From: a bacterium
GTDB lineage: Bacteria; Zhuqueibacterota; Zhuqueibacteria; Oceanimicrobiales; Oceanimicrobiaceae
NCBI GenBank assembly: GCA_037446635.1
Contig: JBBIIG010000013.1
Location: 17,855 to 81,854 of the forward strand
DNA: 64,000 bases
Direction of reading: 5' to 3'
The position numbers and the translations under genes were made by a program. Of this stretch, positions 8,379-47,382 are shown piece after piece; position 1 is the first letter of the stretch; every line of letters starts with the position of its first letter. The notes under the pieces were generated by a model. That model was given only the letters and a program-made list of their open reading frames with translations, did no database searches and had not been told where the DNA came from.

Positions 8379-10511
8379 TTACTTGTCAGAAGCCTGAGAT
8401 AGGCTGGCGGCTTGAATTCGGCGCAGCGTCGCCAGCAATTCATCAAGGTTTGGGAAACGCATTGCGGGTTCGCTGTGAGAGGCCTTGCCGATTAATTCTT
8501 CCCATTCGTTTTTTAACCGTGAATTTTGGACGCCGCCGTTTGCTGCCAGCGTTTTGTCAAGAATGACGCCGAGGGAAAAAATATCGCTGCGCTCGTCGCC
8601 GGTTTCGCCCGCTGCCATTTCCGGCGCGAGATATTTTGATAAATGCGCTTGACCGCGATTCGTAAAGTTATCGCAGAAAAAATCCGTTAGTTTTAAAATG
8701 CGGCCTTCGTTCACCCAAATATTTGATGGCTTGAGATTGAGATGATGAAGGCCGTGGCTGCGAGCGTAGAGCAGCGCGCGGACGATCCTCAGAAACAACT
8801 CCAACATCTCCCTATCGAAATCTTCCTCTGGAATTTTGATGTCGGTGATGGCCTGCCCCTCAATAAACTCGCGAACGAAGTAGATCATCCCGTCCTGCAC
8901 TCCAAGATCGAAGATGGTGGCAATATTCGGATGACTTAAGCGAGCGATCGCTCCCAGCGCATCGAACATTTTTTGTCTCTCGTCTCCCTCTTTCAAAAAC
9001 GGCCAGGCTTGCTGCGGCGGCATTATTTTGATAATCAACCTTCGTCGCAAACGGCGATCGGCGCCGAGAAATACAGCATGGTGCTCGTGGTTCGCCAACT
9101 GCTTTTCCAATAAAAATTCTGACAGCTTGTAAGGATGATCATCATCAACATAATCGAGGGGATTAAACCAAAAAACTTCAGCGATTTTTCTTTCATCGCC
9201 GGGTAGGAGTGCGCCATAAGTTTTTTCTTCAAATCTGATATTTGCGGCGCGCAGTTGCTGGTGTATTTGCTCATCGGCGATGAGCAGCAACCGGCTTGAG
9301 TTGGGTTTGTCAAATTTTGGATCTTCGACAACGTGCAGCAGATGCGTCGCGGCGGCGCAATCGTGAAGAACTTCGCCGCTTTTTCGCGAATTGGACGAGG
9401 CCACGATTCCACAATTTAAAGTGCTTTGGAAATCATCGGAGAAGCGGTTGTGCGCCGTGATATTTTTTAATAGTCGCTGCGCACACTCAATCTGTCGCAG
9501 TGGATCCGTTGCCAGACTGATGAACCCGCCGCCGATAAGCCGCACAACGCTAGCCGGCGGGTTCGACAGATTAGAAACCAACTCCTGAATTTTTTGCGGT
9601 TGGAGTGCAGCGCCTTGGATTTCCGCAACCAGAACGCTTTGCCAGCGATCGCAGTCTGCGAGGGGCTGATTGCACTGATCCCCCTGCGCCAGGAGGTTGA
9701 GAATTTCTATGTTGGGATCGAATTTGTTTAAGATGAAGCGTTCTTTGCGCGCGCCATTTTTGAGGCGGCTGAAATAATCTTCCATTGCCACCAGCCCGAG
9801 AATAAACTGGTATTCATCGGCATCCTCGTTCTCGCTCACGTTACTGTGGATGATTTCAGGCAGCGCCAGGCGCAGGGTTAAATAATCGCGCAAGCGGTCG
9901 AGGGATTCGTCGGGTGCGATTTGTTCCAATCCGTCGAGAATTAGGTTGACCATTTGGTCGTCGCCAATCTTCTGATTTTGGGAGATGGCCTGGTACGCGT
10001 GGGTTAAGGCCAATTCGATGGTAACATCGCCTCCGTTGTTGTTTTCAATCTCGCGCAGCCGAAGCAGCGCCTCTTCAAACTCCCCGCGCCGCCATAATTT
10101 TTCCAACTCAGCGCGATCGAAATTTTTCAGAGGGGTAGGCGATGGCAACGCCGCCGCACCGGTGGCGTCGGAGGGAAAAATGATTTTGCGGATGGCGTTA
10201 GCCCTGTCGCCCCCCAAAACATCGAACTGTGAAAAAAGCTCGGCGAGTCCGTTTCGCAATGCTACCGAATTTGGATTGAGCGCTGCGGCTTTTTCATACA
10301 ATTTCAACACCGGCTCGGAAACGTCTTGCAGGGCGATCGCCGCCAGCGCCGCCTGCAGCGCGGCCTCCGAATGTTCGCCATCTATTTCTAAGAACTGTTG
10401 AAATTTCTCCAGCGCTTGCGAATATTGCTGGCGTTCGAAGTAAGCTTTGCCGAGCGCCATTAATAGTTGCTGAATTTTACCGAGCGCGTTGTCAGGTTCG
10501 ATCTGGGTCAT
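8379..10511 (-). CDS. TPR + degenerate class III cyclase-like domain + Ser/Thr pseudokinase
   Basis: N-terminal TPRs. Kinase fold LSHPNIATIFD, HLNLKPSN, LTDFF, YLAPE, SDIFSLG. Lacks the G-loop and catalytic Asp. Confidence 0.8.
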   Translation of the reverse strand: MTQIEPDNALGKIQQLLMALGKAYFERQQYSQALEKFQQFLEIDGEHSEAALQAALAAIALQDVSEPVLKLYEKAAALNPNSVALRNGLAELFSQFDVLGGDRANAIRKIIFPSDATGAAALPSPTPLKNFDRAELEKLWRRGEFEEALLRLREIENNNGGDVTIELALTHAYQAISQNQKIGDDQMVNLILDGLEQIAPDESLDRLRDYLTLRLALPEIIHSNVSENEDADEYQFILGLVAMEDYFSRLKNGARKERFILNKFDPNIEILNLLAQGDQCNQPLADCDRWQSVLVAEIQGAALQPQKIQELVSNLSNPPASVVRLIGGGFISLATDPLRQIECAQRLLKNITAHNRFSDDFQSTLNCGIVASSNSRKSGEVLHDCAAATHLLHVVEDPKFDKPNSSRLLLIADEQIHQQLRAANIRFEEKTYGALLPGDERKIAEVFWFNPLDYVDDDHPYKLSEFLLEKQLANHEHHAVFLGADRRLRRRLIIKIMPPQQAWPFLKEGDERQKMFDALGAIARLSHPNIATIFDLGVQDGMIYFVREFIEGQAITDIKIPEEDFDREMLELFLRIVRALLYARSHGLHHLNLKPSNIWVNEGRILKLTDFFCDNFTNRGQAHLSKYLAPEMAAGETGDERSDIFSLGVILDKTLAANGGVQNSRLKNEWEELIGKASHSEPAMRFPNLDELLATLRRIQAASLSQASDK

Positions 10512-10533
10512 TCAACCTCGACGGAAAAATTAT

Positions 10534-11649
10534 TCAGGATTTGTTTTGCTCGAGCTTCAACGCGCTTTCCAAAACCAGGTTGCTTTGGGTTGTCTGGCGG
10601 CTCGCCGCCGGTGGTTCTGCGGACGCTGTCGCGGCGCGGTAGATCAGCAAAGCCACTACGGTGAAAATGATGACGATCATGATCTTTAAAAGAGTTTTTT
10701 TTCGGCTGATTTTTTTCTTTTCCGTGGACGCTTGATAAATGGTTTTCACCGCTTGATCGAGATATGAGGTGACCTCCGGCGTTTCATCTAAGATGGTTTG
10801 CTTGTGGGCGGAGTAGGGCGCCGCTGGCTCGTTCCCAGAAATGTAGATGAGTCCGCCGGTGATGTTGTCTGAGCCATCGACCCGTTTGGCGTTGCGAATC
10901 AAACTGCTGATTTTATTTTGCAGCGAGCCGTGAAATTGGCGGAGCTCGCTTTGAATAAAATCCTCGGATAAGGCGTTATACAGACCGTCGGAGCAAATGA
11001 GGTAGAGGTCCTCATTGAGCAAGCTTTCGATGTACAGATCGATTTTAACGGTTGGCGCCAAACCCAGGGCGCGCGTGAGAACATTTTTTTTCTGGAAAAT
11101 TTTGATTTGCTCCTCGCCAATCTCTTTGTCTTCGATGAGCTCGTTCAGCCAGGAGTGATCGCGGGTGAGGCAGACAAGCCGGCCGTCGCGCAGGCGATAG
11201 ACGCGAGTGTCGCCCACGTGCGCGATGATAATTTTTCCGTTGTCCAGCGTAACGGCGCTGATGGTTGTGCCCATGCCGCGGGCGGCGGCATCGTGCGCGG
11301 CAGCATACAAAACCCGGCGATTGGCCAATCGGATGGCCGCGATCAATTTTTTAGCGGCCGGTGGAATTTCTGTTTTTAAATCGGGACATGCTTTAGTGAG
11401 ATCAAAAAATTTGTTTTGTACCACGAGGTTGCGCAGGGTCTCGTTGGCAAGCATCACGTCGCGGAGGGTTTCCGCGGCGATTTGGCTCGCTAGCGCGCCT
11501 TTGCGGTGCCCACCCATGCCGTCGCAAACCACGAAAAATTGTTTGGGCTGCGAGAAAAAAAAGAAATCCTCGTTTTGCTCGCGCACGGTTCCGACGTCGC
11601 TGTCGGCCGCCATGAGGACTTGTTCGTCGATGTGTGTCTCAGCGATCAT
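10534..11649 (-). CDS. PP2C-family Ser/Thr phosphatase (Stp1/PrpC-like) with C-terminal TM helix
   Basis: REQNED, CDGMGGH, HVGDTR, CSDGL and DNIT motifs. Confidence 0.92.
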   Translation of the reverse strand: MIAETHIDEQVLMAADSDVGTVREQNEDFFFFSQPKQFFVVCDGMGGHRKGALASQIAAETLRDVMLANETLRNLVVQNKFFDLTKACPDLKTEIPPAAKKLIAAIRLANRRVLYAAAHDAAARGMGTTISAVTLDNGKIIIAHVGDTRVYRLRDGRLVCLTRDHSWLNELIEDKEIGEEQIKIFQKKNVLTRALGLAPTVKIDLYIESLLNEDLYLICSDGLYNALSEDFIQSELRQFHGSLQNKISSLIRNAKRVDGSDNITGGLIYISGNEPAAPYSAHKQTILDETPEVTSYLDQAVKTIYQASTEKKKISRKKTLLKIMIVIIFTVVALLIYRAATASAEPPAASRQTTQSNLVLESALKLEQNKS

Positions 11650-14044
11650 AAATCCTTCGGCGCCTCCATTGCGCCCAAAATGTTGCCGCACCGGTTCCAA
11701 TAAACATTAGCAAACCCATCGCGATGGCAACATCGGCTTTGAACGTTGGCGGTAGCGGGGAGGTCTGCACCAGCGTAAGACTGCTCTGGCCATATTTTTG
11801 TCCCCACAAAACGCTTGCCGGTGGAATTTTACTGTTGGATTGAAACTGATAAACCAAGCCAGCTTTGTTGGCCAGAAAAAGATCGAGGCGGCCGTCTTTG
11901 CTTAAATCTGCCACCAGTGGCTGGTGGAAATTATTAAACGGCAAGGGTTCTGGGGGCAGCAGCTCCTCGCCGTTCCGGCCATCGAGAACTTTGAGTTTTG
12001 CCGCCTCCACAAACGTCACATCAGTCAGGCCGTCTTTGTTGACATCCACCGCCGCTAAGTCGGGGAACGGAGGAGCCGTCTGTTCCAACTCGGTGCGCCA
12101 AATGATTTTTGGCTGCTGCTCATCGCCGGCGCCGCAATACGCGCGAATTTCACCGAGGCTGGTGCAGGAGACCACGTCCGGGCGCGCGTCGCCATCGAAA
12201 TGGCCAAACGCGAACGGCAGGGTTGGGCCGCCATTTAGGGTCAGCTCATCGGTGAACACCTCGAACCACAGTCGGCTGTTGGCGGCGCCGTCGATGGCGA
12301 GGATGCGGCCCTGAAGCGTGGTGACGACGTAGTCGAGTATTTTGTCGCCGGTGAGATCCGCGGTTCCCACGGGATGGCGAATTTGATTGTCTTCGAAAAA
12401 CGTTCCGCGCGCTCGATTTAGCTCTTCATTGACGTCGATGGTTTTGGCGATTTTGCGCTCGTGCCCATCGATAATCAAAACCAGCCCACGTTCCGTTCCC
12501 ACCAACAACTGGCGCCGGCCCCGGCCATTATTTTGAAGTTCCGCGCTGGCGAGAGGACATTGCAGCGAAATCTCGGTTGCCATTTGGAACCACTCCATTT
12601 CCGTTACACGATTGTAGCCCAGATGCAACACGCCTTCGGAATTGACAATTGCCACGTCGTTCAAGTCATCGCCGTCGAGATCGTCCACCAGCGCCGGGCC
12701 AATGAGTTGGCCGGTTAAAACGGGACTCATCCAGATTTCCGCGCCATGCAGGCCGTCGATGGCGGCCAGCCGGCCGTCGCTGGTGATGTAAACAAGATCG
12801 GCATTGCCGTCCTGGTTGATGTCGGCGCACGCAAACGGCAAGCGCGGATCGGCCGGCGCCGTGTCGATGATCCATTTCGGCTGTTTCGATTCGCCGTCAA
12901 TGAGCAGCGGCTTGTGGCTGATGTTGGTGGTGATGATATCGACAAAACCGTCGCGATTGCAATCGGCGGCGGCCGCAGGTTGTGGGGCAAGCGCGGCGGA
13001 CTGGCCCTGGTCAGTCGAAGGCAAGGCGCCGCTTTCCTCCGCGCCCCAACGCGAAAGCTCGAGGGTGAAGGGCTGTGGTTTTTGAGTGATCAGGCGGCGT
13101 TCCAAAAATCCACTTGTCAACAAGAAGATGCCGAGAATCAGCACCGCTGTCGCCAGTGCACGTCTGAAATGGGTTTGATAGCGAACCCACCACACGCCCG
13201 CGCGTTTGGGCGGACTGAAATCAAGTTTGTCTTCGCAGCAAAAACGAAAAATGGTGCTCTGCTGATCGCTGACAATTTCAAGCTCGTCGCCCGGGAAAAT
13301 TTCCACATCGTCGTCCACCGGCACGATGAGCTGATTCACGTGCGTGCGCGTCTTGCTGCGTTTGTCGCGCACAAAAAATGAGTTGTTTTGAAAATAAACG
13401 GTGGCGTGCCGCCGCGAAATGCTTTGATCGGTTTCGCCTTTGGGATTCTTTTGCAGGACGATATCGTTGAGTTTTTCGTCGCGGCCAATTTTGGTTTCCC
13501 CGCAGCGCAGTTGATAGCGTTTGCCTCTATACGGACCATAAATTGCGATCAGGTAGTACGGAGTTCCGTCGGTTTCGGTTTTCTTTAAAGTTTGCAGCGC
13601 GATGGAGTTTTCTGTTTCGGCGTTTGCGATGGCCGGCGGCGGCGACGCCGCGCCGGCGTGGGGGTATGATGAGTGCGGGAGCGGGGATTCCCAAAAAGGC
13701 GCTGGGGTTTCATCAGGCGGTTCAGCTTGCACCCACGCCATCTCCAGCGGCGACTGCTCGAAGACGATGGCATGTGCGCCAAGTTGGATGAGATCGCCGT
13801 TTTTGAGCGCCGCGATGTCTTCAATTTTTTGGCCATTCAAATAGGTGCCGAAGGCGCTGTTCAAATCGCGGATGAAATAGCCCCGGCTGCGGCGCTCGAT
13901 GCTGGCGTGGGTCATCGAAACCAGTTTGTCGTGGATCACGATGTTGTTGAATTTATCAGAACCGATAGTGCACGAGTTTTGAGTGGATTTCATGGTGAAC
14001 TCGTCAAGGACTTCCGCTTTCTTTTTCAAGATCAATTTTGGCAT
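11639..14044 (-). CDS. FHA-FHA-TM-FG-GAP/beta-propeller-TM membrane protein
   Basis: Two FHA domains (IGS..VSMTHA; IGR..ISRRHA). Multiple DxNxDGxxD repeats. Two hydrophobic helices. Confidence 0.85.
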   Translation of the reverse strand: MPKLILKKKAEVLDEFTMKSTQNSCTIGSDKFNNIVIHDKLVSMTHASIERRSRGYFIRDLNSAFGTYLNGQKIEDIAALKNGDLIQLGAHAIVFEQSPLEMAWVQAEPPDETPAPFWESPLPHSSYPHAGAASPPPAIANAETENSIALQTLKKTETDGTPYYLIAIYGPYRGKRYQLRCGETKIGRDEKLNDIVLQKNPKGETDQSISRRHATVYFQNNSFFVRDKRSKTRTHVNQLIVPVDDDVEIFPGDELEIVSDQQSTIFRFCCEDKLDFSPPKRAGVWWVRYQTHFRRALATAVLILGIFLLTSGFLERRLITQKPQPFTLELSRWGAEESGALPSTDQGQSAALAPQPAAAADCNRDGFVDIITTNISHKPLLIDGESKQPKWIIDTAPADPRLPFACADINQDGNADLVYITSDGRLAAIDGLHGAEIWMSPVLTGQLIGPALVDDLDGDDLNDVAIVNSEGVLHLGYNRVTEMEWFQMATEISLQCPLASAELQNNGRGRRQLLVGTERGLVLIIDGHERKIAKTIDVNEELNRARGTFFEDNQIRHPVGTADLTGDKILDYVVTTLQGRILAIDGAANSRLWFEVFTDELTLNGGPTLPFAFGHFDGDARPDVVSCTSLGEIRAYCGAGDEQQPKIIWRTELEQTAPPFPDLAAVDVNKDGLTDVTFVEAAKLKVLDGRNGEELLPPEPLPFNNFHQPLVADLSKDGRLDLFLANKAGLVYQFQSNSKIPPASVLWGQKYGQSSLTLVQTSPLPPTFKADVAIAMGLLMFIGTGAATFWAQWRRRRIYDR

Positions 14045-14076
14045 CGGGCCTCCTTTTGAAACTCAAGGAAATGGAT

Positions 14077-16614
14077 TCACCGGGCCAGGGTCAGGCGAAA
14101 GGTCAAACGATTTTCCTGATCGCTGCGCACGCGCAGCATTTTGACCTGTTCCTGATACCCCTCTTTCACAAGCGTAATTTCATAGAAACCGGGCATGAGC
14201 CGCACCTCCAATTGGCCCGCGGCGTCGGTGACTCCCAACACGGCGGCGCCGTTGGCCGCGCGATCTTCGCGGTACAAGATTTTCGCCGATTGGATGGGAT
14301 CGCTGGTGATAGCGTCCAGCGCCTTTATGGTCGCTGGAGTAAGTGAAGGATGCATCCTCGCAATCACCGTGGTCTCGCTCGGCGGGATTTCGACGAAGGT
14401 TTCGAGGTAACCCTCTTTGCGCAACTTTGCGGTGTAGGTCCTCGGCAGCAATTCCACTTCTGCCGGCGTTTTAATGTTATAAACAATGGTTTTGCGGTTT
14501 ACCGTCAGTTCCACCAGCTCTGCCTCGAGCTCGGGTTCGTCGGGCGCGCCGGCGTCGTGCGTGACGAGTTTGACCATTCGCCCCAACTCATGATGGATGC
14601 GGCTCGGCGTCGATTCGTTGACGTGCACCGTAAAGCTGCGCGGCAGGTAGCCCGTTTTGCTGAGGGTGATGTGATGTTCGCCCATTTTCAAAAACAGCTC
14701 GCCATTGAGCCCGGTGACGCCCACTGGTTTCGGGCTGTGGTCGAGGTAAATATCCGCGCGTTCGGGGTTGGAGGAAATGGCGACGCTTTTATGAAACGTG
14801 CCTTTGATGTTGAACTGCGCTTTTCCGCGAACGATTTTCTCGACGTTCCAAAAGCGGCGATCTTCGATGAATTCTTTGCCTTGAATCGTGTTGACGCGTA
14901 AGCCGCTCAAACGCGGCAGTCCGGGCAACTCCAGCTCGATCGTCAGCGGTTTTTCTGAGACTTCCCAAAAAATTGTGGCCGGCGTTTTGTGATTGGTTTT
15001 GACGCCGTCAAAAAGGATCTCCGCGCCCGCTGGTTCTGAGGCAATTTCAAATTGATTTTTGAAACGAAAAATGTAGGGCTGGCTGGCGTGGCGCTGGCTT
15101 TCGCCGGCGACGCGAACGCCGCCGGCGCGCGGCACGGTGATCGCTTTCACAATGGGCTCGAACTGCGGCAGGGTGAGCTTCAGTTTGTGCACCCCCGGCG
15201 TAATTTTTTCCAAACGCAGCGGCGTGGTCGCGTTTACCATCTCGTCGTCGAGGTAAACTTGCGCACCCGCGGGAACGGAAACAATTTTGATGGCCGGGGG
15301 GAAAAGAAAATCATAAATACCGGCGCCGACTTTCGTGAAATGCGCCAACGTATCCACCGCCGCTAAAAGCAGCGCGAGCAGGAGCAGGCCCAGCGCGCCC
15401 AGCGTAACCGCCTTGCGGTGCGTGCGCGACGAAAGCCGAATCACGTCGATAATCGTTCGCTGGCCGTCCTCTTCGCTTTCTTCTATGATGCTATAAAATC
15501 GCGAGGCATAGTCTTTCGCTGCCGATGGTTCCAAAATTTCGAGCGCGGTCGAGTCTTGCGCGCCGGGCCAGTGGCTGTTTGAGTTTAAGGTTTCCGCAGG
15601 GGTTGGTTGCCCCACGTTCATTTCCACCAATCCCTGTTCGCGCTGCTCCACTTCCGATGAGACCCACTGCGTTTCGCTTTCGGGATTTTTGATGTAGTCC
15701 AATTTTTGGATGAATTGAGCGAGCTCGCCCATCAAATCCGCGGCCGGCGCGGCGAGTTGCAGATAACTCATCAAATCTTTGTAAAAGGCGCCAGCGTCGG
15801 GGTAACGATTTTTGGGATGATATTCCAGCGCCCGCCGCAGCGGGCCCCGGAGTTTTTCGGGAATGTTTTCGGAGTCGAAGCGAATCACATCCCAACCGCC
15901 GGCGACCAGCGTCTCCAAAATTTCCCGCGGCTGGCGCGCGGGGATCAGCCGCTCGCCGGTGAGAATTTCAAACAGGATCGCCGCGCTGGAAAAAATATCG
16001 CAGCGCCCATCGAGAACGGCCGCGCCGTTGACTTGTTCGGGCGCCAGGTAATGAATGTTGCCTTGCACGAACACCTGATTGCCAATCTTGCTCTGCTGCC
16101 GGCGCAGGTCGGCCATCCCAAAGTCGATGATTTTCACTTCCCCCGAGCGCATAATCATGATATTGACCGGCGAAATATCCTGGTGGACGATGTTCATCGG
16201 CTCGCCGCGCAAACTATCGCAGCGATGGTGCGCGTAATCGAGGCCGGCGCACACTTCGGCGATGATGTACACCCCAAGATGTTTTGGAATGGCGACTTGA
16301 TGGCGGCGCGCCGCCAAAAGCACGCTCAACAAATCCGGGCCATCGATGAACTCCATAATGATGAACAATTGATTGGCGGCGCCGCGCTGGATGTCATAGA
16401 TTTGGACGATGTTATGGTGGTTGAGCTGCGCGATGCTCATGGCCTCGCGTTGGAACATATCGATGTAACGAGCCTCGGACAAAAACTGCGGGTCAATGGA
16501 TTTGATGGCCACCGTTTTCCCGAGCCGGCGATCGCGGCCTTTGTAAATGACGCCAAAGCCGCCGCGTTTGATTTCGTGGAGAATCTCGTACTTGTCGCTA
16601 ATCTCAACGTTCAT
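14077..16614 (-). CDS. Hanks-type Ser/Thr kinase with TM helix and extracytoplasmic PEGA repeats
   Basis: GGFGVIY, VAIK, HQDISPVN, DFG and APE motifs. PEGA units SVPAGAQVYLD, SEPAGAEILFDG, SNPERADIYLD. Alternative start 16656. Confidence 0.92.
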   Translation of the reverse strand: MNVEISDKYEILHEIKRGGFGVIYKGRDRRLGKTVAIKSIDPQFLSEARYIDMFQREAMSIAQLNHHNIVQIYDIQRGAANQLFIIMEFIDGPDLLSVLLAARRHQVAIPKHLGVYIIAEVCAGLDYAHHRCDSLRGEPMNIVHQDISPVNIMIMRSGEVKIIDFGMADLRRQQSKIGNQVFVQGNIHYLAPEQVNGAAVLDGRCDIFSSAAILFEILTGERLIPARQPREILETLVAGGWDVIRFDSENIPEKLRGPLRRALEYHPKNRYPDAGAFYKDLMSYLQLAAPAADLMGELAQFIQKLDYIKNPESETQWVSSEVEQREQGLVEMNVGQPTPAETLNSNSHWPGAQDSTALEILEPSAAKDYASRFYSIIEESEEDGQRTIIDVIRLSSRTHRKAVTLGALGLLLLALLLAAVDTLAHFTKVGAGIYDFLFPPAIKIVSVPAGAQVYLDDEMVNATTPLRLEKITPGVHKLKLTLPQFEPIVKAITVPRAGGVRVAGESQRHASQPYIFRFKNQFEIASEPAGAEILFDGVKTNHKTPATIFWEVSEKPLTIELELPGLPRLSGLRVNTIQGKEFIEDRRFWNVEKIVRGKAQFNIKGTFHKSVAISSNPERADIYLDHSPKPVGVTGLNGELFLKMGEHHITLSKTGYLPRSFTVHVNESTPSRIHHELGRMVKLVTHDAGAPDEPELEAELVELTVNRKTIVYNIKTPAEVELLPRTYTAKLRKEGYLETFVEIPPSETTVIARMHPSLTPATIKALDAITSDPIQSAKILYREDRAANGAAVLGVTDAAGQLEVRLMPGFYEITLVKEGYQEQVKMLRVRSDQENRLTFRLTLAR

Positions 16615-16976
16615 GTCGATCTCGAATCTCCTTCCGGCCAAAAAGGAATGCCGCAATCAGCGAATTTGCAAGTGGCAACTCCCAGTGAAGTCTTTGCAAA
16701 ACGACTCACACCAGGATGCCAATTCGCTAAGGTTCGTAAAAAATTTTAGCGGTATCTTGCGTCTCTGCGTACGTTCTTTTGGGTATCGGCTCGCCTGCCT
16801 GTCCGTGTTAGGGTATATTTGGTTTGAATCAGTTATTTTATAGATGAAAAAGAGAGGGATTGCTGAAAACTTTTTGAGTTAGGCAGAAATTTAGAGAAAA
16901 TTTTTACGCATAAGGCGCGTCTTATGGCTAAATTGCTAAGTTGAGGGTCAGAATAAATCATCGAACAAACGGGATA

Positions 16977-17972
16977 ATGGCAATGGTTGCTCGGATTGTT
17001 TTATCTTTTTTGATCACGCAACTGATCGCTGCTGATTTGACAAGCGCCCAGAGCGGCACGCCGGCGAGCAAAAAGTTCAAAGAGAAGTGCTGGTCCAAAG
17101 ACGACGACTCCACTCTGTTAGGTTTGATGGAGAAGGTGACCAAAAAGCCGCTGGAGCAAATTTACGTCAACAACGATTATATCCAGACGTTTGGCTGCGC
17201 GTACGAAGACGATGATATCGAAGAAAACTCCATTCGCGCGGTGTTTCGCGCCATCGACCAATCGCTGCGCAACCGCCGCATTACCGCACGCGACAACGTC
17301 CTGGGCCTGCTGCGCTCGCATCCTCCCCGGCCAGATAATTTAACCCGGGATTATACCCTCTACGTCAACCTCGTGAAAAATGAAAAAGTCCAGCAAGCGC
17401 GCTATGAGGTGAAAATTTTGGATCTGGAAATGGCGCCGACCTTTGAGTCGCGACGCGCCGTTTGGACGCGGGTGATTACTCGTTATGCGTATCAGGAAGA
17501 TTTTAAAAATGCCCCGATCCCGCAAAACAATCTTTCCGAGTTCGTGCAGGTGATGGAATTGGCGGAACAAATTTTAGAAGCCGCCGGCAAAGGTAATTTC
17601 AAGGAAGTGAATGAAATGATCGCCAGCACCAAAAAGCCGACCTTTCACCCCACCGACATCCGCGATTTGGTTTTTGGAGATTTCCTGACCTTGTTTTCAG
17701 AAAAAGATCCGACGTTAGGAGAGATTCCCGCCATTTACATCGGCAAGGGCATCTTCATCGCCAAGATTCCCAAATTCGGATCAACGATTTTAAAGTTTGG
17801 TGAGGAGCGGTTGTTCGGTTTGAGGTTAGACACCAGTATGTTTCATCGCGCCAGCAGCTTGTTTGTCAATCTGCAGTATCAAGGCCCGGAGTCGGTGCTG
17901 CAGTGCGTCTTGCTGCGATTCGGCCACAAAAAGCCGCTCTATCTTCCCGATTTGGCCAGCGACAGCCGTTGA
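16977..17972 (+). CDS. Hypothetical exported protein
   Basis: Long ORF with signal-peptide-like N-terminus (ARIVLSFLITQLIAADLTSAQ). Start uncertain (16941, 16977 or 16983). Confidence 0.75.
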   Translation: MAMVARIVLSFLITQLIAADLTSAQSGTPASKKFKEKCWSKDDDSTLLGLMEKVTKKPLEQIYVNNDYIQTFGCAYEDDDIEENSIRAVFRAIDQSLRNRRITARDNVLGLLRSHPPRPDNLTRDYTLYVNLVKNEKVQQARYEVKILDLEMAPTFESRRAVWTRVITRYAYQEDFKNAPIPQNNLSEFVQVMELAEQILEAAGKGNFKEVNEMIASTKKPTFHPTDIRDLVFGDFLTLFSEKDPTLGEIPAIYIGKGIFIAKIPKFGSTILKFGEERLFGLRLDTSMFHRASSLFVNLQYQGPESVLQCVLLRFGHKKPLYLPDLASDSR

Positions 17973-18102
17973 GTTGTTTTGGTGTGTTCAATCGCTGTTC
18001 CAATATGGATCAAAAAATACAGCAGCGACTTAAACGAATCGGATTCCCCTAACTTCAAGGGAATCAGCTCAGAATATATCCGGGGAAAATTTTTGAGGAG
18101 GC

Positions 18103-18117
18103 TGGCACGGGGTTTGT
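18103..18117 (+). promoter_or_regulatory. Candidate sigma54 (-24/-12) promoter
   Basis: TGGCACG-N4-TTGT, with GT instead of GC at -12, about 70 bp upstream of ORF 18190. Confidence 0.35.
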
Positions 18118-18189
18118 GAAATGCTGGCTTCGACTTGCGCCAGTGTACAACTCAGAATTACTAACCAATCATGCTAAGCATCTAAGCAC

Positions 18190-19161
18190 GTGTTTCAAAG
18201 GAAAGCGAAATCTAGACGATTTGTTCTGGGCAGAAGCTCGGATAAAACAAATTTAGCGGCGGTCAAACACCGTTACCGGCGCAATATGGAATTGGCGTTA
18301 GCCATCAGCTTGGCCGCGGCCATTGTGACGATACGTTTGCTCTCAATGGTGCATTTCGACCAGCTTTTCGTGTTTGAGGATCGGGCCAAGTTCGAGTCGA
18401 TTGACATTATCGAGATTCCGCCGGTGATCGAAGAGCCGCCCAAGTTGAAAATGGAAGAGGTCGTCGAAATTCCCCCGGAAGAAGAGAGCGAAAAAAGCGC
18501 GATTGAAAAAGACCTCGAAGAATTAATCGAAGAGAAAAAAGACGAGGTGCAATTGAGCTTGAGCTCGAATAATTTGGGAGAGTTGTTGCTCACCAATTCC
18601 CCGTTAGGCGATATCGCCGGGCCTGAATTGAATTTCAGGAAGGTGCGCGCCGACGACGCCAGCCGCATCGATCTAAAAAGCCGCAAATTTTACGGCGACG
18701 CCAACAGTGGTTTGGATATCGGTAAAACCGAAAGTTCCTCCCGCAAGATCAGCAATGATAACGTCGGTTTGGATTTGAAAACCAAACCGGTGGAGTTCGG
18801 AAAGGCCGCCGAGGCCCAAAAAAAATCGGACCCGAAGCTCGGCATCTCCGATGTTCCCGAGCGCATCATCTCTTTCGCGTCTTCGACCTTCGGCACGGAA
18901 GATTACAAACTTTGGAATAAAATCAATGCCGAATTGGATCGCTTGAACAAAGGCCGCTACGGTTCGGTGCCGAAGGAAATCGAGAGGTTCAGAGGCGGGT
19001 TCCGCATTCACTTTTCGTTTCCCGACGGCACGCGGCAAGAAATTCATTGGGAAAATGCTGGCAACGTTTGGATCAAAATTATTGGCAAGAGCAATCGAAC
19101 GCAGGTGCAGGAGCTGCGCCGCGCGCTCGATGGCCTATTAAAACTAACCCTGGGCAGTTAG
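18190..19161 (+). CDS. Single-pass membrane protein with TonB-like N-terminal anchor/linker and an unrecognised C-terminal domain
   Basis: YRRNMELALAISL TM segment, Pro/Glu-rich linker (EIPPVIEEPP), no recognisable TonB_C domain. Confidence 0.7.
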   Translation: MFQRKAKSRRFVLGRSSDKTNLAAVKHRYRRNMELALAISLAAAIVTIRLLSMVHFDQLFVFEDRAKFESIDIIEIPPVIEEPPKLKMEEVVEIPPEEESEKSAIEKDLEELIEEKKDEVQLSLSSNNLGELLLTNSPLGDIAGPELNFRKVRADDASRIDLKSRKFYGDANSGLDIGKTESSSRKISNDNVGLDLKTKPVEFGKAAEAQKKSDPKLGISDVPERIISFASSTFGTEDYKLWNKINAELDRLNKGRYGSVPKEIERFRGGFRIHFSFPDGTRQEIHWENAGNVWIKIIGKSNRTQVQELRRALDGLLKLTLGS

Positions 19162-19176
19162 CGGAGATCGGTTATT

Positions 19177-20613
19177 ATGAAAAAATTCTGTCTTTTGCTT
19201 TTGATAATAGGCTTTGCAAACGTCGGGGGAGTTCTCGCACAGCCAGTCAGCACATTGTACGACGAAATTCAACAGAGCTACCGCAATCAAGATTACGGCC
19301 GCACCGTGGACCTGTGCCGGCAGATCATCGTGCGCTGCGCCGAAAGCGTGCCGGACGTGGAGTGCCGCTTCACCGACGTCATGAAAAACGTTTATCGGCT
19401 CAAAGGATTCGCCGAGTACAATTTGTATCTGAAGGATCGCAGCATCGTCACCCTCGACGCCGCTATCCTCTCCCTTAAAAAAAGTTATGAGCTGTTTGGC
19501 GATCCGGAAATCGCCTTTAACTTCGGATACATGGAATCCCTGCGCGCCATCGAGATGCAGGACGGCGCCTACCTCGACGGTCTGGTGCACGCCTGGCAGG
19601 GCATCCTCGGCCTCTATGCCAAAGATGAGTGGACGGTTTCGCAGGAGCTGGTGGAAAAAATCAAAACTTTTATCAACCAGTCGGTGGAGCTGACTATCAC
19701 CCCAGCCGACAGCGCCGTAACCAATGGCATTTTCACCAGCTTCATGGTGCGGCTGGCCTGCGACCTTGCGGAGAAGGCCTATCTTGGCAGCCAGGACAGC
19801 CTGTTTTTCCGAGTCTATCGCAAACGCGCGGTGGAGGATGAGTTCAATTTACGCGGCAACGAGTGGCGGGCGCGCGGCTTCAGCGCTCAAAAAGATTTGA
19901 ACAATTACCCCGACGATTACAACTACCGCACCACCCGCCGCTATTTAGAGCTGGCTTACAAACACGCCAAAAGCACGGAGCGGCAGGCGGAGATGCTCAA
20001 AGAGCTCACCAAAGTCGCGCTCTTCATGGAGAAAGAAGGTATCAACAATCAACCCGAGGCCGATCTGCAATACGCCCGGGAGAAGGCGCAGCAGGCGTAT
20101 AAAATTTTGGTGGATCGCGGTGCCGATATCCCGCTTTCGCTGGCCACCGAAATCAAGAAGGTTTATGGCAACTCCATTTTCCGATTGGTGAATTACTATT
20201 TTAGTTTCGCGGATTCCACCAACCGCTTGAACGCTTACGCGCGCGCTAAACGCGTTGGCGAGGAGCTGCTGGTTCCCGATGGCTTCGGCCGCCGGCAAAA
20301 ATTTCAATGGGATGGCTACGAAGATTTGTACTTGCGGCTTTCCGAGATCGGTTATGAAATCGGCGAAAAGGAGTTTGCGGTGGACATGGTTGATAAAGCC
20401 TGGAAAGCCGCATTGGAAGCCAACGCTCTGAACCAGGGAAATCTCTGCGCCCATTTGGATTCCCATTCGGCTTCGGAGCTGCTGCCGTTTGCGCGAGTCT
20501 ATCGCCAGATCGCCGAGCGCTTCGGCTTGCAGCCGGTGCTGCACTGGCTGCGCCCAATCATAAAATGTATCGCGGAGAACGCGCGCAACCTGACCTCGAA
20601 GGAAGGCGCTTGA
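19177..20613 (+). CDS. Exported alpha-helical / TPR-like hypothetical protein
   Basis: Signal peptide MKKFCLLLLIIG...VLAQ; helical repeats; GGAG RBS. Confidence 0.8.
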   Translation: MKKFCLLLLIIGFANVGGVLAQPVSTLYDEIQQSYRNQDYGRTVDLCRQIIVRCAESVPDVECRFTDVMKNVYRLKGFAEYNLYLKDRSIVTLDAAILSLKKSYELFGDPEIAFNFGYMESLRAIEMQDGAYLDGLVHAWQGILGLYAKDEWTVSQELVEKIKTFINQSVELTITPADSAVTNGIFTSFMVRLACDLAEKAYLGSQDSLFFRVYRKRAVEDEFNLRGNEWRARGFSAQKDLNNYPDDYNYRTTRRYLELAYKHAKSTERQAEMLKELTKVALFMEKEGINNQPEADLQYAREKAQQAYKILVDRGADIPLSLATEIKKVYGNSIFRLVNYYFSFADSTNRLNAYARAKRVGEELLVPDGFGRRQKFQWDGYEDLYLRLSEIGYEIGEKEFAVDMVDKAWKAALEANALNQGNLCAHLDSHSASELLPFARVYRQIAERFGLQPVLHWLRPIIKCIAENARNLTSKEGA

Positions 20614-20614
20614 A

Positions 20615-21190
20615 ATGAAGGTTTTCTTTTTAGTCGGACTGCTAATAATTATTTGGGGGAATAGCGCTAACGTACGTGCACAAGCGATTGAGATGAAGTT
20701 AGAAGAGCAGATGGTGGCGCTGGAGCGCGACGTCGTGCGCATTTATAATGAGCTGCAAAAATTTTTGAGCGATGATCCCGCTCGCCGCGGCAACGAGCTG
20801 CTCGCTTTCGAGTCGCTGATTACGATCTATGTCGATGAAGTGCTCAACCTCTACGACACCTTCTGGCGCATGAAAGGCACGACGCTGGAGTCGCAGCAAA
20901 ATATTGCGGCGCGCTGCTTGATGTTCCGCGCGCTCACCTATCTCGAGCGTGCCAATAAAAATTCGACTAATTACGCCAAAGCCTGTGAGGATTATAAAAA
21001 GGCGCTCTATCTCTCGCAAAACAAGTTAGAGGAACCTCTTCTCAGCTCAAAGCTGCCCCACGAAGTCTGGGTGGGGAAAAAGCTTTACACCCGCCTCGCG
21101 GATCTCTTAGACAGTCGATCCAAAAATTTTCAAATGATCGAATGCTTTCGTATGACCAATGGGGTTTCGCAATTCGGAGACGGCAAATGA
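20615..21190 (+). CDS. Exported hypothetical protein, paralog of the N-terminal domain of the next gene
   Basis: Signal peptide; aligns by eye with the 21187 protein. Confidence 0.8.
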   Translation: MKVFFLVGLLIIIWGNSANVRAQAIEMKLEEQMVALERDVVRIYNELQKFLSDDPARRGNELLAFESLITIYVDEVLNLYDTFWRMKGTTLESQQNIAARCLMFRALTYLERANKNSTNYAKACEDYKKALYLSQNKLEEPLLSSKLPHEVWVGKKLYTRLADLLDSRSKNFQMIECFRMTNGVSQFGDGK

Positions 21191-22479
21191 AAACGGTTGC
21201 AGGATGCAGTTTAAGTTTGATCATCTACTCGATTCTCGCGGCAGTGGTCTATTCACAACAAGACCAAAGCATACTGGTCAATCGCATGAAGCAGCACGAG
21301 AACGACATCGTGAACACCTACCTCGAATACCAGAAACTTTATTATGAGGACAAGGCTCGCGTCAACGAACTGCACGCCTTCGAGGATTTGTTGACGGTTT
21401 ACATCAATCAGGTCGCGGAGATTTACGAGACCCTCAATCTCTCTGAAAAGAAAACGCAAACGCCGCGTGACATCGCCGCCCGCGCGCTCATTTTCAAAGC
21501 CTTGATGTATCTCGAAAAGGCGCCGCTCAATCCGGAATATTTTGAAAAGGCGTGTTACGAATATTACGAGGCCCTCAACCTTTACAACGGCGTCGATGAT
21601 CCGCCGGTCATCTTCAAAGACCTGCCGCAGACCATTCAAAGCGGCGATAAAATTTATTACCGCCTGATGGACATTCTCGATGATAAAGGCAAAGGGTTGT
21701 TTGAATTCGGCAAAGTGGTCATTTCATTCAGAAATTTTCGAGTGACCGCGAATTTTGATCCGCAGATGATCGAGCTAATCAAAGTCGAGGACGCGCAAAC
21801 GCTGAGGTCGCCCAATACCTATCGCCTGGCCAGCCCGAGAATCGTTCATGCTTTCGACGAAGTTTTCCGCCGCGCGCGGGAGGTCGAGACCTACGTGGCG
21901 CTGCCGCAAGGCACTTATATTTTGCGGTTGAACAATCCCACCGCCAATAATAACGCCTACACGCCGCTGACCAGATTTTATGTCAGCGCGAACCAGGAAC
22001 AGTTTTATATTCTCGAGCCGCTGGCCGATTGGATCATTCTCTACGAAAACCCCACCAGCAAGCGGCCGGATTTCTACAAATTTCGCCGTACCAGCCAAAG
22101 TGGCAATTCCCCAAACGCCACCAACAACATCGGGTTTCCCTCTCAAACGAACGGCTCATCGCACAAAAGCGCCTCCAGCCAGCAAGCCGGCGCCAACACT
22201 CACGAACAATTGGTGGCGGAAATCGTGTCGGTTTATCTGCCGCAGTTCGATATCAAGCTTATGTTTGATCTGAACGATCCGAATATCAGCGGCAACGCCG
22301 TTCAAATTATTTCCCGCGCCGTAGTGGAATACGTCGAAAGCCGCGCTTTTTATAACGAATGGAATTTGTGGACCGCCAGTTGGGACATTTCCAAAAAAGT
22401 ACGGGAGATTATCAGCCCCGGCAGCTTTATTCCCATCGAGCTGGTTGAGTTGATTTACAAAGTTCTCCGCGAGCTTTAG
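21187..22479 (+). CDS. Exported hypothetical protein
   Basis: ATGA overlap with the upstream gene; signal peptide MKTVAGCSLSLIIYSILAAVVYSQ. Confidence 0.8.
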   Translation: MKTVAGCSLSLIIYSILAAVVYSQQDQSILVNRMKQHENDIVNTYLEYQKLYYEDKARVNELHAFEDLLTVYINQVAEIYETLNLSEKKTQTPRDIAARALIFKALMYLEKAPLNPEYFEKACYEYYEALNLYNGVDDPPVIFKDLPQTIQSGDKIYYRLMDILDDKGKGLFEFGKVVISFRNFRVTANFDPQMIELIKVEDAQTLRSPNTYRLASPRIVHAFDEVFRRAREVETYVALPQGTYILRLNNPTANNNAYTPLTRFYVSANQEQFYILEPLADWIILYENPTSKRPDFYKFRRTSQSGNSPNATNNIGFPSQTNGSSHKSASSQQAGANTHEQLVAEIVSVYLPQFDIKLMFDLNDPNISGNAVQIISRAVVEYVESRAFYNEWNLWTASWDISKKVREIISPGSFIPIELVELIYKVLREL

Positions 22480-22522
22480 CCGTTTGCCCTCCAAAATCTG
22501 ATTTTTCCACAAGATTTTTTTC

Positions 22523-22551
22523 TTGCTTCTTTGCGAGCGCTTTTTTATTAT
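22523..22551 (+). promoter_or_regulatory. Sigma70-type promoter
   Basis: TTGCTT-N17-TATTAT, 30 bp upstream of ATG 22581. Confidence 0.5.
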
Positions 22552-22580
22552 CCAACTCTTAATAATCCAACCGCTAAAAC

Positions 22581-22721
22581 ATGAGTGAGAAGCCTGTTGC
22601 CAACGAAGAAACGCGCAAGAAATTGAAAGAGGCGTTTCAGAAGTTGCAGGGGACGCCCTTCGTAAAAACCGATGGCAAGCAAAACGACGAGGAAAAGACT
22701 GATTTTCCGAGTAAGAAATAG
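22581..22721 (+). CDS. 46-aa small hypothetical protein
   Basis: MSEKPVANEETRKKLKEAFQKLQGTPFVKTDGKQNDEEKTDFPSKK, directly downstream of a promoter. Too short for the ORF track. Confidence 0.45.
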   Translation: MSEKPVANEETRKKLKEAFQKLQGTPFVKTDGKQNDEEKTDFPSKK

Positions 22722-22793
22722 CGTTTTCGCTTTAAGTTATCGCATCCTGTTTTTTCGCCATTTCTAAAAATATTTATTCCCTTTCGTTTTCAC

Positions 22794-23147
22794 ATGCCGG
22801 CGCTCGCTTTTGAAAAACGAAAATTTCCGCGCATCGATACGTCAAAGCAAGCGGGTTGTCAAATTAGAGTCTTTGGCGTAAAGGGCAAACCCCTGGTGGG
22901 TAAGGTCGTCAACATTAGCCTGGGTGGGGTAGCTTTTGTCAGCAGTTATAAAAATATTTCCCAAGCGCTGAAAAAGTACTCGACCAAAGTGAAGATTCAA
23001 TTGCCCGAACTTGATCCCATTGAAGCTAGCACCACGTTGTTGCGTATTCGCCCAGAGCCAGCCGGCGAGGACTGTCTCTTCGTGATGAAATTGACCGATA
23101 TGAATGGCAACAGCGCCACCCGCCTGCAAAAATTTATTTCGATCTAA
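22794..23147 (+). CDS. Stand-alone PilZ domain protein (c-di-GMP receptor)
   Basis: RxxxR (KRKFPR) and D/NxSxxG (NISLGG) motifs. Confidence 0.85.
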   Translation: MPALAFEKRKFPRIDTSKQAGCQIRVFGVKGKPLVGKVVNISLGGVAFVSSYKNISQALKKYSTKVKIQLPELDPIEASTTLLRIRPEPAGEDCLFVMKLTDMNGNSATRLQKFISI

Positions 23148-25078: not shown

Positions 25079-25969
25079 ATGCCCACGCGCTTAAATAAAA
25101 CCCGCCAGAAATTAACCCTCTTCAAATTTGATCCCAACCGCCGTTTATCAAAAGACATTTTAATCAACGAAGACGAAATTTTCTGCCACCCCCTCGGCTC
25201 AACGGAGCCGGCTTGTTTTTTAGGCGTGGTGGCGCCGGAACAATTGGAGTCTCTGTTTCAGCGCTTCCAAGTTTTTGCCGGATTGAGGAAAATGGGATTT
25301 GAGAACGTCGTTCTCGAATCCCATTCGAAAGATGGCTACAATCACGTCTTCCGAGTTTTCTGCAACGATACCATACTGATTGAGGCGGTGCTTCATAAAG
25401 CAACGTTGCCGCTGGGCAAGTCAGCAAAAAGGTCTGCGGCACAGGATGTCCTGTTTGTGGAATGGCTGCTCCTGCAAAATCCCTTTCGTGATTTTGACGA
25501 ACAGCGGCCGCAGCTTCCCGGCCAGCGCCGGCCAGGGCTCGGGTTGGCCAAAGAGGTTATGAACGTTCTGGTTGAGCTGACGAAACTGTGTGGATTGGGA
25601 GGTCTGGCGGCTGTGCCCGGACACTATCACAACGCGGTGATTTTTTCGAAATCCTTCAAGTATTTGAATGCGGACTGCGAGGGCAAACTGCGCGCCCTGC
25701 GTCGCGATCTTTCGGAGTTTCCGCTGGCAATGGTTTCCTGGGCGGTGGAATTGAATTGCGTCAAGAACGCCGACACGGGAGACTACTTGAACTGGTTCGT
25801 CGATTGGCAGGTGTTGGGAATGAGCGAGCGTTTAAAAAAATATTTTGCGTCCGGCGAGTACCGCAATTGTGTCAATCGAACGTTTCGAGAGTCGCACTAT
25901 ATTTTGGATGAAGCCAAGTTCGAAGTTGAAAAGGAGAAGATTCCGCGCCTGGCGGAGGTGATTATTTGA
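25079..25969 (+). CDS. Hypothetical protein resembling the C-terminal accessory domain of some bacterial histone-deacetylase-family proteins
   Basis: LFVEWLLLQNP...RPQLPGQRRPGLG...PGHYHNA motif (recalled resemblance). Confidence 0.6.
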   Translation: MPTRLNKTRQKLTLFKFDPNRRLSKDILINEDEIFCHPLGSTEPACFLGVVAPEQLESLFQRFQVFAGLRKMGFENVVLESHSKDGYNHVFRVFCNDTILIEAVLHKATLPLGKSAKRSAAQDVLFVEWLLLQNPFRDFDEQRPQLPGQRRPGLGLAKEVMNVLVELTKLCGLGGLAAVPGHYHNAVIFSKSFKYLNADCEGKLRALRRDLSEFPLAMVSWAVELNCVKNADTGDYLNWFVDWQVLGMSERLKKYFASGEYRNCVNRTFRESHYILDEAKFEVEKEKIPRLAEVII

Positions 25970-28766: not shown

Positions 28767-29078
28767 ATGATTACCAAAACATTAGATGGCCACATCGAAA
28801 TGACTGAAGGAATTGCCGGCGGCAAACCGAGGATAGCCGGACATCGCATCACGGTACAAAATATTGTCATCTGGCATGAAATGTTGGGCCGCAGCGCCGA
28901 TGAAATCGCAGCCGAATATGATCTCACTTTAGCAGACGTTTATGCAGCACTCGCTTATTACTATGACCATAGATCTGAAATTGATCAATCCATCGAACAG
29001 AGCGACTCTTTTGTCGAAGCCCTGCGTCAAAAAACACCTTCAAAACTTGCAGAAAAATTGAATGAGCAAAAAGCTTAA
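28767..29078 (+). CDS. DUF433 family antitoxin
   Basis: GIAGGKPRIAGHRITV...EIAAEYDLTLADVYAALAYY. Confidence 0.92.
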   Translation: MITKTLDGHIEMTEGIAGGKPRIAGHRITVQNIVIWHEMLGRSADEIAAEYDLTLADVYAALAYYYDHRSEIDQSIEQSDSFVEALRQKTPSKLAEKLNEQKA

Positions 29079-29395
29079 GTTCTACACCGATGAGCATGTT
29101 CCGAATTCCGTTGTGAAGGGGTTGCGACTACGAGGTATTAACGTTCTAACAACAAAGGAGGCTGGAATGCTCAGCGCAAGTGATGAGGAGCATATCGCTT
29201 TTGCAAAAAAGGAGCAAAGGGTCCTATTCACTCAGGACGAGGATTTTCTTCGACTGCATTCTAAAGGCGTCGAGCATTGCGGTCTCGTTTTTGCTCATCA
29301 GCGTACACCCGTAGGTGATGTAAATTCGTGGGTTGATGCTCATCTACCAAGTACTCGATTACAAAGACATGCAAAATCATGTTGAATTTATTTGA
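29062..29395 (+). pseudogene. DUF5615 PIN-like toxin with an apparent +1 frameshift at about 29322-29324
   Basis: FYTDEHV, SDEEHI and LFTQDEDF motifs. Removing one A restores the C-terminus GDVIRGLMLIYQVLDYKDMQNHVEFI*. Could be a sequencing error. Confidence 0.75.
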
Positions 29396-46631: not shown

Positions 46632-46689
46632 TTCGCGATTCTGGGAGATAATGATGAAATTGCATCGTCAGTTAGTTAAGGTTTATTGC

Positions 46690-46770
46690 TATGGAGTATT
46701 GGATTACTGGAGTACCGGATTAGTGCTTTTGATCTTTCATTACTCCATTACTCCAGTACTCCAGTACCAC
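46690..46770. repeat. Intergenic imperfect inverted repeat of TGGAGTA / TACTCCA units
   Basis: atggagtattggattactggagta ... tactccattactccagtactccagta. A similar element lies at about 38750-38820. Confidence 0.55.
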
Positions 46771-46832
46771 ATCAATCCAACTCTGTACAATTTATGAAGA
46801 AATATGCATCACCAAACTTTGGAGGACGAACA

Positions 46833-47168: not shown

Positions 47169-47179
47169 AAGGAGAGGCT

Positions 47180-47347
47180 ATGCTTGGCTGGATGAAAAAA
47201 GCTATTGACCCGGTGTGCAAAATGAAAGTCGATCCGAAAAAAGCCGCGGCTACCAGTGAGTATCAAGGCAAGACCTACTACTTCTGCGCCCAAGGCTGCA
47301 AAGAGGCGTTCGATAACAACCCGGAAAAATTTTTGAAAACGAAGTGA
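47180..47347 (+). CDS. YHS domain protein
   Basis: DPVCKMKV...YQGKTYYFCAQGCKEAF..NPEKF. Confidence 0.9.
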   Translation: MLGWMKKAIDPVCKMKVDPKKAAATSEYQGKTYYFCAQGCKEAFDNNPEKFLKTK

Positions 47348-47382
47348 GCAAAAGTTCGATGCATCAATCATTGGAGGTTATC

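Follow-up and report, generated by a model that had tools for sequence, protein, structure and literature searches.

A kinase, FHA, PP2C and pseudokinase cassette back-to-back with a conserved module carrying a predicted TonB-type anchor in Zhuqueibacterota: a case for two separable systems

The window analysed here is a stretch of 64,000 nucleotides (positions 17,855 to 81,854, forward strand) of contig JBBIIG010000013.1 (contig C13), from a 97% complete genome (GCA_037446635.1) of the bacterial phylum Zhuqueibacterota (KSB1), and our subject is a locus at positions 8,379 to 23,147 of that window, where a minus-strand cassette of four phospho-signalling genes lies back-to-back with five plus-strand genes, u1 to u5 (the module), followed by a gene for a PilZ domain. 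All ten open reading frames, four on the minus strand and six on the plus strand, lie at the coordinates given in the first-pass annotation, a note made earlier from the sequence alone, and carry the domains named there. A scan for promoters and terminators gave matches at chance level. The annotation had gone on to propose that the kinase, FHA and PP2C triad regulates a trans-envelope complex encoded by the divergent genes. The results lead us, with confidence evenly balanced, to a different reading: that the locus holds two separable systems. One is a receptor-kinase cassette that would dock on itself, the other a periplasmic complex that would draw its energy in trans by way of u2 and be fixed to the wall by u1.

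The gene nearest the module (14077..16656, minus strand; likely start 16614) encodes a non-RD kinase domain, a linker, a single transmembrane (TM) helix at residues 416-434 and periplasmic PEGA/carboxypeptidase-regulatory repeats, assigned by Pfam. The active site retains VAIK, HxD (here HQD) and DFG, and G32-G33-F34-G35, K52, D160 and the DFG motif are invariant in 30/30 kinases of an alignment. By its catalytic residues the protein is predicted to be an intact Hanks-type Ser/Thr kinase, the writer of the earlier proposal. The next gene, 32 bp away (11639..14044, minus strand), encodes an 801-residue protein with the Pfam architecture FHA1-FHA2-TM-FG-GAP beta-propeller-TM. The reader proposed for this position keeps its architecture, and its reading function narrows to one domain: FHA2 is canonical, with GR in 30/30 homologues and an invariant SRR (SRRH in 29/30, SRRQ in one), and FHA1 is degenerate, with GS in the window protein and GR in just 2/27 aligned rows. 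As judged from these motifs, the phosphothreonine-binding residues are confined to the second FHA domain.

The third gene overlaps the FHA gene (10534..11700, minus strand; likely start 11649) and encodes the eraser, a PP2C-type phosphatase with one TM helix (residues 336-354) and the metal-binding Asp motifs SDVG, DGMGG, CSDGL and GSDN; it matches NF033484 at E 1e-63, under the curated cut-off. It is shorter than most of its close relatives, which carry a periplasmic extension (546-552 amino acids in five of the eight listed), and the window cassette lacks both this extension and a TPR-TM-TPR gene that are found in most close relatives. A TPR gene at 54630-56300 was considered as the missing gene and rejected as a generic TPR protein. 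At 54630-57648 two unknown helical proteins are encoded upstream of a 556-residue all-TPR protein, beside an SNF2 helicase.

The fourth gene, after a gap of 22 bp (8379..10511, minus strand), encodes a cytoplasmic 710-residue protein with no TM helix, in which Pfam TPR and kinase domains flank a middle domain at about residues 285-450. In the kinase-like domain HLN replaces HRD, DFF replaces DFG and the glycine loop is absent, and the catalytic Asp is missing in 16/16 homologues that cover the site. A profile of the middle domain matches four cyclase sequences (E 4e-5 to 2.5e-4), the best being the solved mycobacterial adenylyl cyclase Ma1120, and HHalign aligns it with class III cyclases over 163 columns at E 0.0016 and a probability of only 16%. 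Only G66 is nearly invariant in 17 rows; neither the two metal-binding Asp, at whose positions the window protein has E and G, nor the catalytic N-x-x-x-R is kept. The middle domain is thus predicted to be a degenerate class III cyclase, homologous in fold and without the catalytic residues, in agreement with the pseudocyclase-pseudokinase named in the annotation.

The kinase-TM linker, 100 residues long, is unconserved save for T401, I403 and D404, which are invariant in 30/30 kinases of the alignment, and the activation loops hold no conserved Thr. The motif T401-I-I-D404 (15445..15456, minus strand) fits pT-x-x-D, a reported FHA ligand motif (PMC5549992). Because T-x-I-D and FHA2 are both invariant, pT-x-x-D is a reported FHA ligand and FHA1 has lost its Arg, we infer that Thr401 is the phosphosite by which the kinase recruits the FHA protein through FHA2. 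The kinase would be clustered by a cue from the periplasm, for which the PEGA repeats, the propeller or a TPR-TM partner would be the sensor; once clustered, it would phosphorylate Thr401 in its own linker; FHA2 would dock on phospho-Thr401; the docked FHA protein would recruit the TPR-pseudocyclase-pseudokinase, acting as a scaffold; and dephosphorylation by the membrane PP2C would return the switch to its starting state. The invariance of T-x-I-D and of FHA2 holds whatever the neighbours of the cassette are. The cassette likely signals within itself.

Two described circuits are close in composition. The threonine-phosphorylation pathway of type VI secretion (T6SS; PpkA, PppA and Fha, acting on TssL-T14 in Agrobacterium; PMC5995506) likewise encodes a membrane Ser/Thr kinase, a PP2C and an FHA protein together, but here the FHA protein is membrane-bound with a periplasmic propeller, the PP2C has a TM helix, TssC is absent, and the cassette family adds TPR-pseudocyclase-pseudokinase and TPR-TM-TPR genes and is not tied to one machine. 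The mycobacterial circuit of PknB, FhaA, the MviN pseudokinase and PstP likewise sets a kinase, an FHA reader, a pseudokinase and a membrane PP2C at the envelope, and in it phosphothreonine recruits the FHA protein (PMC12599244); here, in contrast, the repeats are PEGA rather than PASTA, the kinase is non-RD, the host is diderm, and the pseudokinase, a soluble protein, has a dead cyclase as its fusion partner rather than a flippase. We place the cassette among the kinase/FHA/PP2C/pseudokinase circuits, as a new variant.

The window copy is one of three cassettes in its genome. Most copies of the cassette carry one or two TPR-TM-TPR genes, and many have a PP2C with a periplasmic extension. In genomes G058 and G051 a type IV pilus-like operon of same-strand genes (a pilin-like gene, PilC, PilB, a second ATPase, a SPOR protein, a secretin and three pilin-like genes; about 21 kb in L087-L090 and L051-L052) has one of the two other cassettes at each end, and FHA-gene pairs at such spacing occur in six genomes of the window's own family, f1, two of which were read. 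In the window's genome the same pilus genes adjoin the two other cassettes, on two contigs, and PilT, PilQ and PilM share a contig with one of them; a second pilus gene set (a PilM fusion of 857 residues, PilQ and PilT) lies at G000:C36:25114-31682 (L240). These arrangements, together with the PilZ gene of cyclic di-GMP type that follows the module in f1, would fit a cassette family that mainly regulates type IV pilus or secretion assembly, with the window copy as a reduced third paralogue. The pilus link was read in two relatives only, however, and pilus genes occur within about 20 kb in 0/16 cassette loci from families f11-f15, four of which face an Rsb-Mla operon instead, so that we regard this account as possible but on the doubtful side. 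It is compatible with the reading of two separable systems, for which it would name the output of the cassette.

The Rsb-Mla operon is faced by one bracketing cassette in G058 and G051 and by four f11 and f13 copies; it comprises a GAF-SpoIIE phosphatase, an anti-sigma kinase and STAS with MlaE/F/D, and faces the cassette in three families (L051:15222-19917; L079, L083-L085, L087, L089). Cassette copies in f12, f14 and f15 have unrelated neighbours. The cassette family thus changes its neighbours from one genome to another, and we conclude that it serves no single fixed machine.

The divergent genes behave differently. Among 167 genomes of the phylum u5 is present in 40, and u3 and u1 are present in 39, the odd genome (G068) having a short contig. 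The stretches around u5 were read in 38 of the 39 relatives. Every contig that covers the module has u2-u3-u4-u5 in this order, and u1 stays attached to it, in first position in f1, f3 and f14 and in last position in f11-f13; the f12 and f13 modules carry an extra short paralogue of the N-terminal half of u3. We conclude that u1-u5 form one fixed module. The module is also narrowly distributed and strongly conserved: the best 7,996 candidates scored for u3 include 87 homologues, all at least 52% identical, and 1.84 billion proteins contain 22 representatives of u1, including five distant singletons (the gene context of one distant homologue, P0015, was sought in metagenomes without result). 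In 7/7 loci that hold both full-length u3 and phosphoglycerate kinase (PGK), u3 is 80-83% identical, versus 69-75% for PGK; u3 is by this measure the most conserved member of the module, above the neighbouring PGK.

The PilZ gene is not part of this unit. It encodes a stand-alone PilZ domain (22794..23147, plus strand; Pfam) with RxxxR (RKFPR) and (D/N)xSxxG (NISLGG), the motif of cyclic di-GMP-binding PilZ domains, and it was correctly annotated as following the module. It lies 3' of u5 in 10 f1 loci and is missing from three other f1 loci and from all f11-f14 loci. We conclude that it is a neighbour in its own family only, outside the conserved module.

None of u1-u5 reaches a curated cut-off in Pfam or NCBIfam or matches PADLOC (kinase matches there are to generic kinase domains), which agrees with the annotation of five genes without a recognisable family, and profiles of u1, u2 and u3 matched nothing among the sequences of solved structures. 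A literature search, with subscription papers mostly outside it, gave no description of the module or the cassette, and word look-ups in the main text of KSB1 genome papers gave no mention of TonB, pili or secretion systems. In keeping with the absence of T6SS and Glt core genes noted in the annotation, the module is neither a T6SS nor a Glt core: u1-u5 match no Glt model, and the 97% complete genome gives no match to TssC/VipB, the one T6SS family tested, for which an E. coli control was positive.

u2 (18190..19161, plus strand) is a bitopic protein with an N-terminal anchor (residues 18-86), a variable acidic linker and a C-terminal domain (residues 222-323). Its first 86 residues match the genome's own TonB proteins in HHalign at 97.5% (E 6.6e-12; reversed control 1.1%). 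A hidden Markov model profile of the anchor finds, below E 0.01, besides u2 itself only five TonB genes (E 3e-17 to 5e-6), the best of which adjoins exbB-exbD-exbD, and the stretch ELALAISL is identical in u2 and one TonB of the genome. At the other end, u2 is absent from the genome's 10 TonB_C matches, its C-terminus has no HHalign match to TonB, and the last ~100 residues, although conserved, have no usable match in the Atlas and none among solved structures or to AgmX/PglI. We conclude, on grounds of homology, that u2 is a predicted true TonB-type anchor with a new domain replacing TonB_C; what the annotation had called TonB-like is thus homologous to TonB.

TonB and TolA transducers and the Agl-Glt core (AglRQS, GltC/D/E/G; PMC3169522) resemble this arrangement in having a bitopic TonB-anchored transducer beside exported TPR-like proteins, but u2 has no TonB_C, AgmX/PglI or FHA domain and its locus has no motor genes, and the genome's own GltG-like gene, with ExbB/D, sits on a different contig and occurs almost throughout the phylum. 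An Agl-Glt-core-like cluster (TPR proteins, ExbB, two ExbD-like proteins and a GltG-like protein with an AgmX/PglI C-terminus) lies at G000:C3 (L236:2787-11100); the GltG-like gene was considered as a specific partner of the module and rejected, being present in 148/167 genomes. At G000:C38 (L241:5333-11937) a PorP-like barrel, an ExbB-like protein, two ExbD-like proteins, a 348-residue bitopic protein (C-terminal domain unknown) and also a TPR lipoprotein form another motor operon with a non-TonB_C transducer.

u1 (16941..17972, plus strand; start most likely near 16977-16983) is predicted to be exported, and a lipobox-like motif in 13/124 homologues suggests that some members are lipoproteins. 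Its AlphaFold2 model has two domains (predicted local distance difference test, pLDDT, 88), an SHS2-like domain at residues 70-190 and an NlpC/P60-like domain at residues 201-307. In VIA comparisons the N-terminal domain is closest to a 352-residue chain of the flagellar LPHT ring (Z 8.6, root-mean-square deviation (rmsd) 2.8, 85 aligned), followed by Lpp20 (Z 5.9) and dodecin (Z 5.0), with RcsF also similar; the Z-scores of 6-8.6 for u1 are near those reached by unrelated folds, and a profile test against 21 LPP20 domains found no sequence match. On its model, the domain resembles FlgT/Lpp20 (and FlgP), from which u1 differs in the absence of a sequence-level match and of flagellin in the genome. 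In the FlgT/Lpp20-like SHS2 fold group ring formation has been linked to an insert that follows the helix (PMC12222027), and the u1 model has such an insert; a complex prediction with three u1 copies scored 0.16 against a mark of 0.42.

For the C-terminal domain about 25 of 50 VIA rows are of NlpC/P60 type, the best being a chain of a MepS complex (Z 6.6, rmsd 3.5, 112 aligned), and HHalign against 27 KSB1 NlpC/P60 domains gives 92% (E 5.6e-7; reversed control 8.9%) over only the His-bearing half of the family, the register of the Cys being set by eye. The catalytic His position is Y, I, F, V or A in 118/124 rows, and the five commonest residues at the Cys position are P, K, E, Q and S. The domain shares with MepS its fold, GD..F and IYLG.G motifs and TPR-like neighbours (NlpI in the case of MepS); it differs in the replacement of His by hydrophobic residues, in having no Cys at the expected place and in its fusion to an SHS2-like domain. 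By fold and aligned residues it is an NlpC/P60-like domain, predicted to be catalytically dead.

The other three proteins are predicted to be exported and largely helical; like that of u1, the signal peptides of u3, u4 and u5 are N-terminal hydrophobic peaks, judged by hydropathy and by eye, in line with the four signal peptides annotated. u3 (19177..20613, plus strand) is predicted to be a helical-repeat, TPR-like protein, as its Atlas language-model features lie nearest TPR clusters, a weak match of low recognition. u4 (20615..21190, plus strand) and the N-terminal part of u5 (21187..22479, plus strand; start most likely 21187, overlapping the u4 stop) are paralogues, with 37% identity over 171 residues. 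The AlphaFold2 model of u5 (pLDDT 86) consists of a helical bundle, then a beta-sandwich and, at the C-terminus, a Trp-rich helical domain in which three Trp are invariant; its VIA rows are generic helical bundles with no clear fold match, and Foldseek with u1 and u5 gave no match at E 0.001 or better. Homology between u3 and u5 is not claimed, the profile comparison having aligned signal peptides only. The results indicate that u1-u5 are, as proposed, an uncharacterised conserved module of trans-envelope type with a real TonB-type anchor. We place the module among TonB-type trans-envelope systems, as a new variant with partners that fall outside the described families.

The proposal that the triad regulates the module is not supported. 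In the window's order the module occurs in 19 genomes, of which 17 can be judged for linkage (G067 and G068 cannot), and the cassette is back-to-back with it in 12/17, four of the 12 having a TPR-TM gene in between. The pairing is broken in the other five: G064 retains u1-u5, next to which only fragments of the kinase, FHA and TPR-TM genes are left, and G051, G062, G065 and G066 have other neighbours (G066 on a flank of 1.6 kb). The collapsed cassette (L061:1-1790) has its kinase, FHA and TPR-TM fragments within about 600 bp, followed by the pseudokinase. Outside the order the pairing occurs in 0/16 determinable genomes (G144 on a flank of 2.3 kb), five more ending at contig edges. An independent count over 36 loci gave 11 intact cassettes, one remnant and 24 loci without a cassette (seven with an upstream flank of at most 2.5 kb). 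Conversely, the FHA-propeller gene is present in 69/167 genomes, 29 of the 69 without the module; in f15 it is present in 17/19 genomes, and u1, u3 and u5 in 0/19. In a tree of the FHA protein (a quick search, midpoint-rooted, with 31 sampled rows) the window copy groups with f1, f3 and f14 copies (support 99), and this clade is sister to two sampled f15 proteins (SH-aLRT 99); f14 thus has an orthologous cassette that is present but unlinked to the module. Co-occurrence of the two gene sets across genomes, whose absence the annotation had named as a refutation, stands, with the FHA gene in 40/40 module genomes, but conserved linkage is limited to one order.

An alternative is that in this one order the cassette was recruited to control the module, most simply with its kinase phosphorylating the u2 tail, FHA2 capturing the phosphorylated tail and motor coupling being switched. 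Because u1, u3, u4 and u5 are predicted to be exported, they would be beyond the reach of a cytoplasmic kinase, and because only the short tail of u2 faces the cytoplasm, its T20 is one plausible route of direct control. T20 is present in 14/16 rows of the order (counted by eye), and the two exceptions include G064, whose cassette has collapsed; the back-to-back pairing is stable in 12 genomes, every module genome has a cassette gene, and PpkA acting on TssL Thr14 in Agrobacterium (PMC5995506) is a precedent. Yet the Thr is also kept in the unlinked genomes G051, G062, G065 and G066, it is present in just 4/8 rows of f11-f13, and the tail is missing in 9/9 f14 rows (by eye) despite the orthologous cassette. 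Nor does joint occurrence help, since the FHA gene is present in 67/72 genomes of that clade and nesting of module carriers among FHA carriers is therefore expected. We consider recruitment unlikely.

The reading of two separable systems starts from the gene content, linkage pattern and conserved residues observed, and from the homology of the u2 anchor and of the NlpC/P60-like half of u1; its inferred binding, phosphorylation and energy steps are those of the cassette circuit above and the following. Through its TonB-type helix u2 would couple to a shared ExbB/ExbD proton motor whose genes lie elsewhere, a situation that the four TonB genes of the genome with no exbB beside them must share; the new domain at its C-terminus would exert a pull on the helical scaffold formed by u3, u4 and u5; and u1, by means of its dead NlpC/P60 and FlgT-like domains, would tie that scaffold to the peptidoglycan wall or to the outer membrane. 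The genome has ten MotA/ExbB-family genes, none in the window region. Several points weigh against this reading, besides the limits already given for the FHA tree and the u1 folds and the conservation of T20 in the order: the pairing persists across at least 11 genera, every module genome has some FHA-propeller gene, so that another paralogue could stand in where the linked cassette is lost, no module locus contains a motor gene, and a TonB-like helix can serve as a passive anchor.

The last two points would suit a static scaffold, in which TPR-like adaptors and a dead endopeptidase bind and regulate wall enzymes, as in NlpI-MepS, and u2 is a passive tether. The best NlpC/P60 matches of u1 are MepS chains in NlpI complexes and the TPR-like u3 is highly conserved, but the homology of the u2 anchor is specific to anchors of TonB type, in that it shares ELALAISL with one TonB of the genome and matches no other membrane anchor below E 0.01, and we judge a static scaffold distinctly unlikely.

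A flagellum-free rotary motor offers another possible partner. An operon at G000:C9:7657-13093 (L243, L260) encodes a FliF-like/TM/FliG-C fusion, a 367-residue exported protein, a TPR lipoprotein, MotA and MotB; its gene order is the same in 16/18 loci read, the other two showing the fusion only. The fusion is present in 24/167 genomes, 23 of them module carriers of the same families, and in 0/19 of f15, and its partner gene is found in module carriers in 20/21 cases. The module could then be a periplasmic accessory ring or output of this motor, with u1 forming a FlgT/FlgP-like ring: the genome has no flagellin, u1 has the insert linked to ring formation (PMC12222027), and in G065 some 4 kb separates the two operons, which are oriented away from one another. 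Against this, the fusion is missing in 17/40 module genomes, G050 has the fusion without the module, physical proximity is found in one of the 18 loci read, and the Fisher p of 0.003 is overstated, kin not being independent; we hold such a role highly improbable. A union of these elements, a KSB1 proton-driven envelope machine in which u2 pulls on a scaffold that a dead NlpC/P60 ring protein anchors to the wall, which works with the flagellum-free FliF-FliG/MotAB rotor and which in one order the kinase cassette switches through the u2 tail Thr, appears very unlikely; if true, it would be a case of phospho-control of a TonB-type energy coupler.

Elsewhere in the window, a 296-residue protein of no Pfam family (25079-25969) has homologues in two f14 genomes, where they lie some 6 kb upstream of the orthologous cassette, a DUF433 and DUF5615 (PIN-like) pair (28767-29385) is a likely toxin-antitoxin module, and an ORF with a subtilase-type prodomain followed by a protein with a FlgD-Ig/T9SS-like tail (46686-48579) may be a split protease gene.

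The cassette is unusually complete, with a receptor kinase, a membrane FHA-propeller protein, a membrane phosphatase and a double-pseudoenzyme scaffold, and because it offers a single invariant candidate phosphosite its core step could be tested with purified domains, the host being uncultured. To our knowledge Ton, Tol and Agl-Glt all transmit motor force through a TonB_C-type domain; u2 appears to keep the motor-facing anchor and to swap TonB_C, within a module whose core is more conserved than a glycolytic enzyme. The module would thus point to an unknown energised envelope job in a widespread uncultured phylum.

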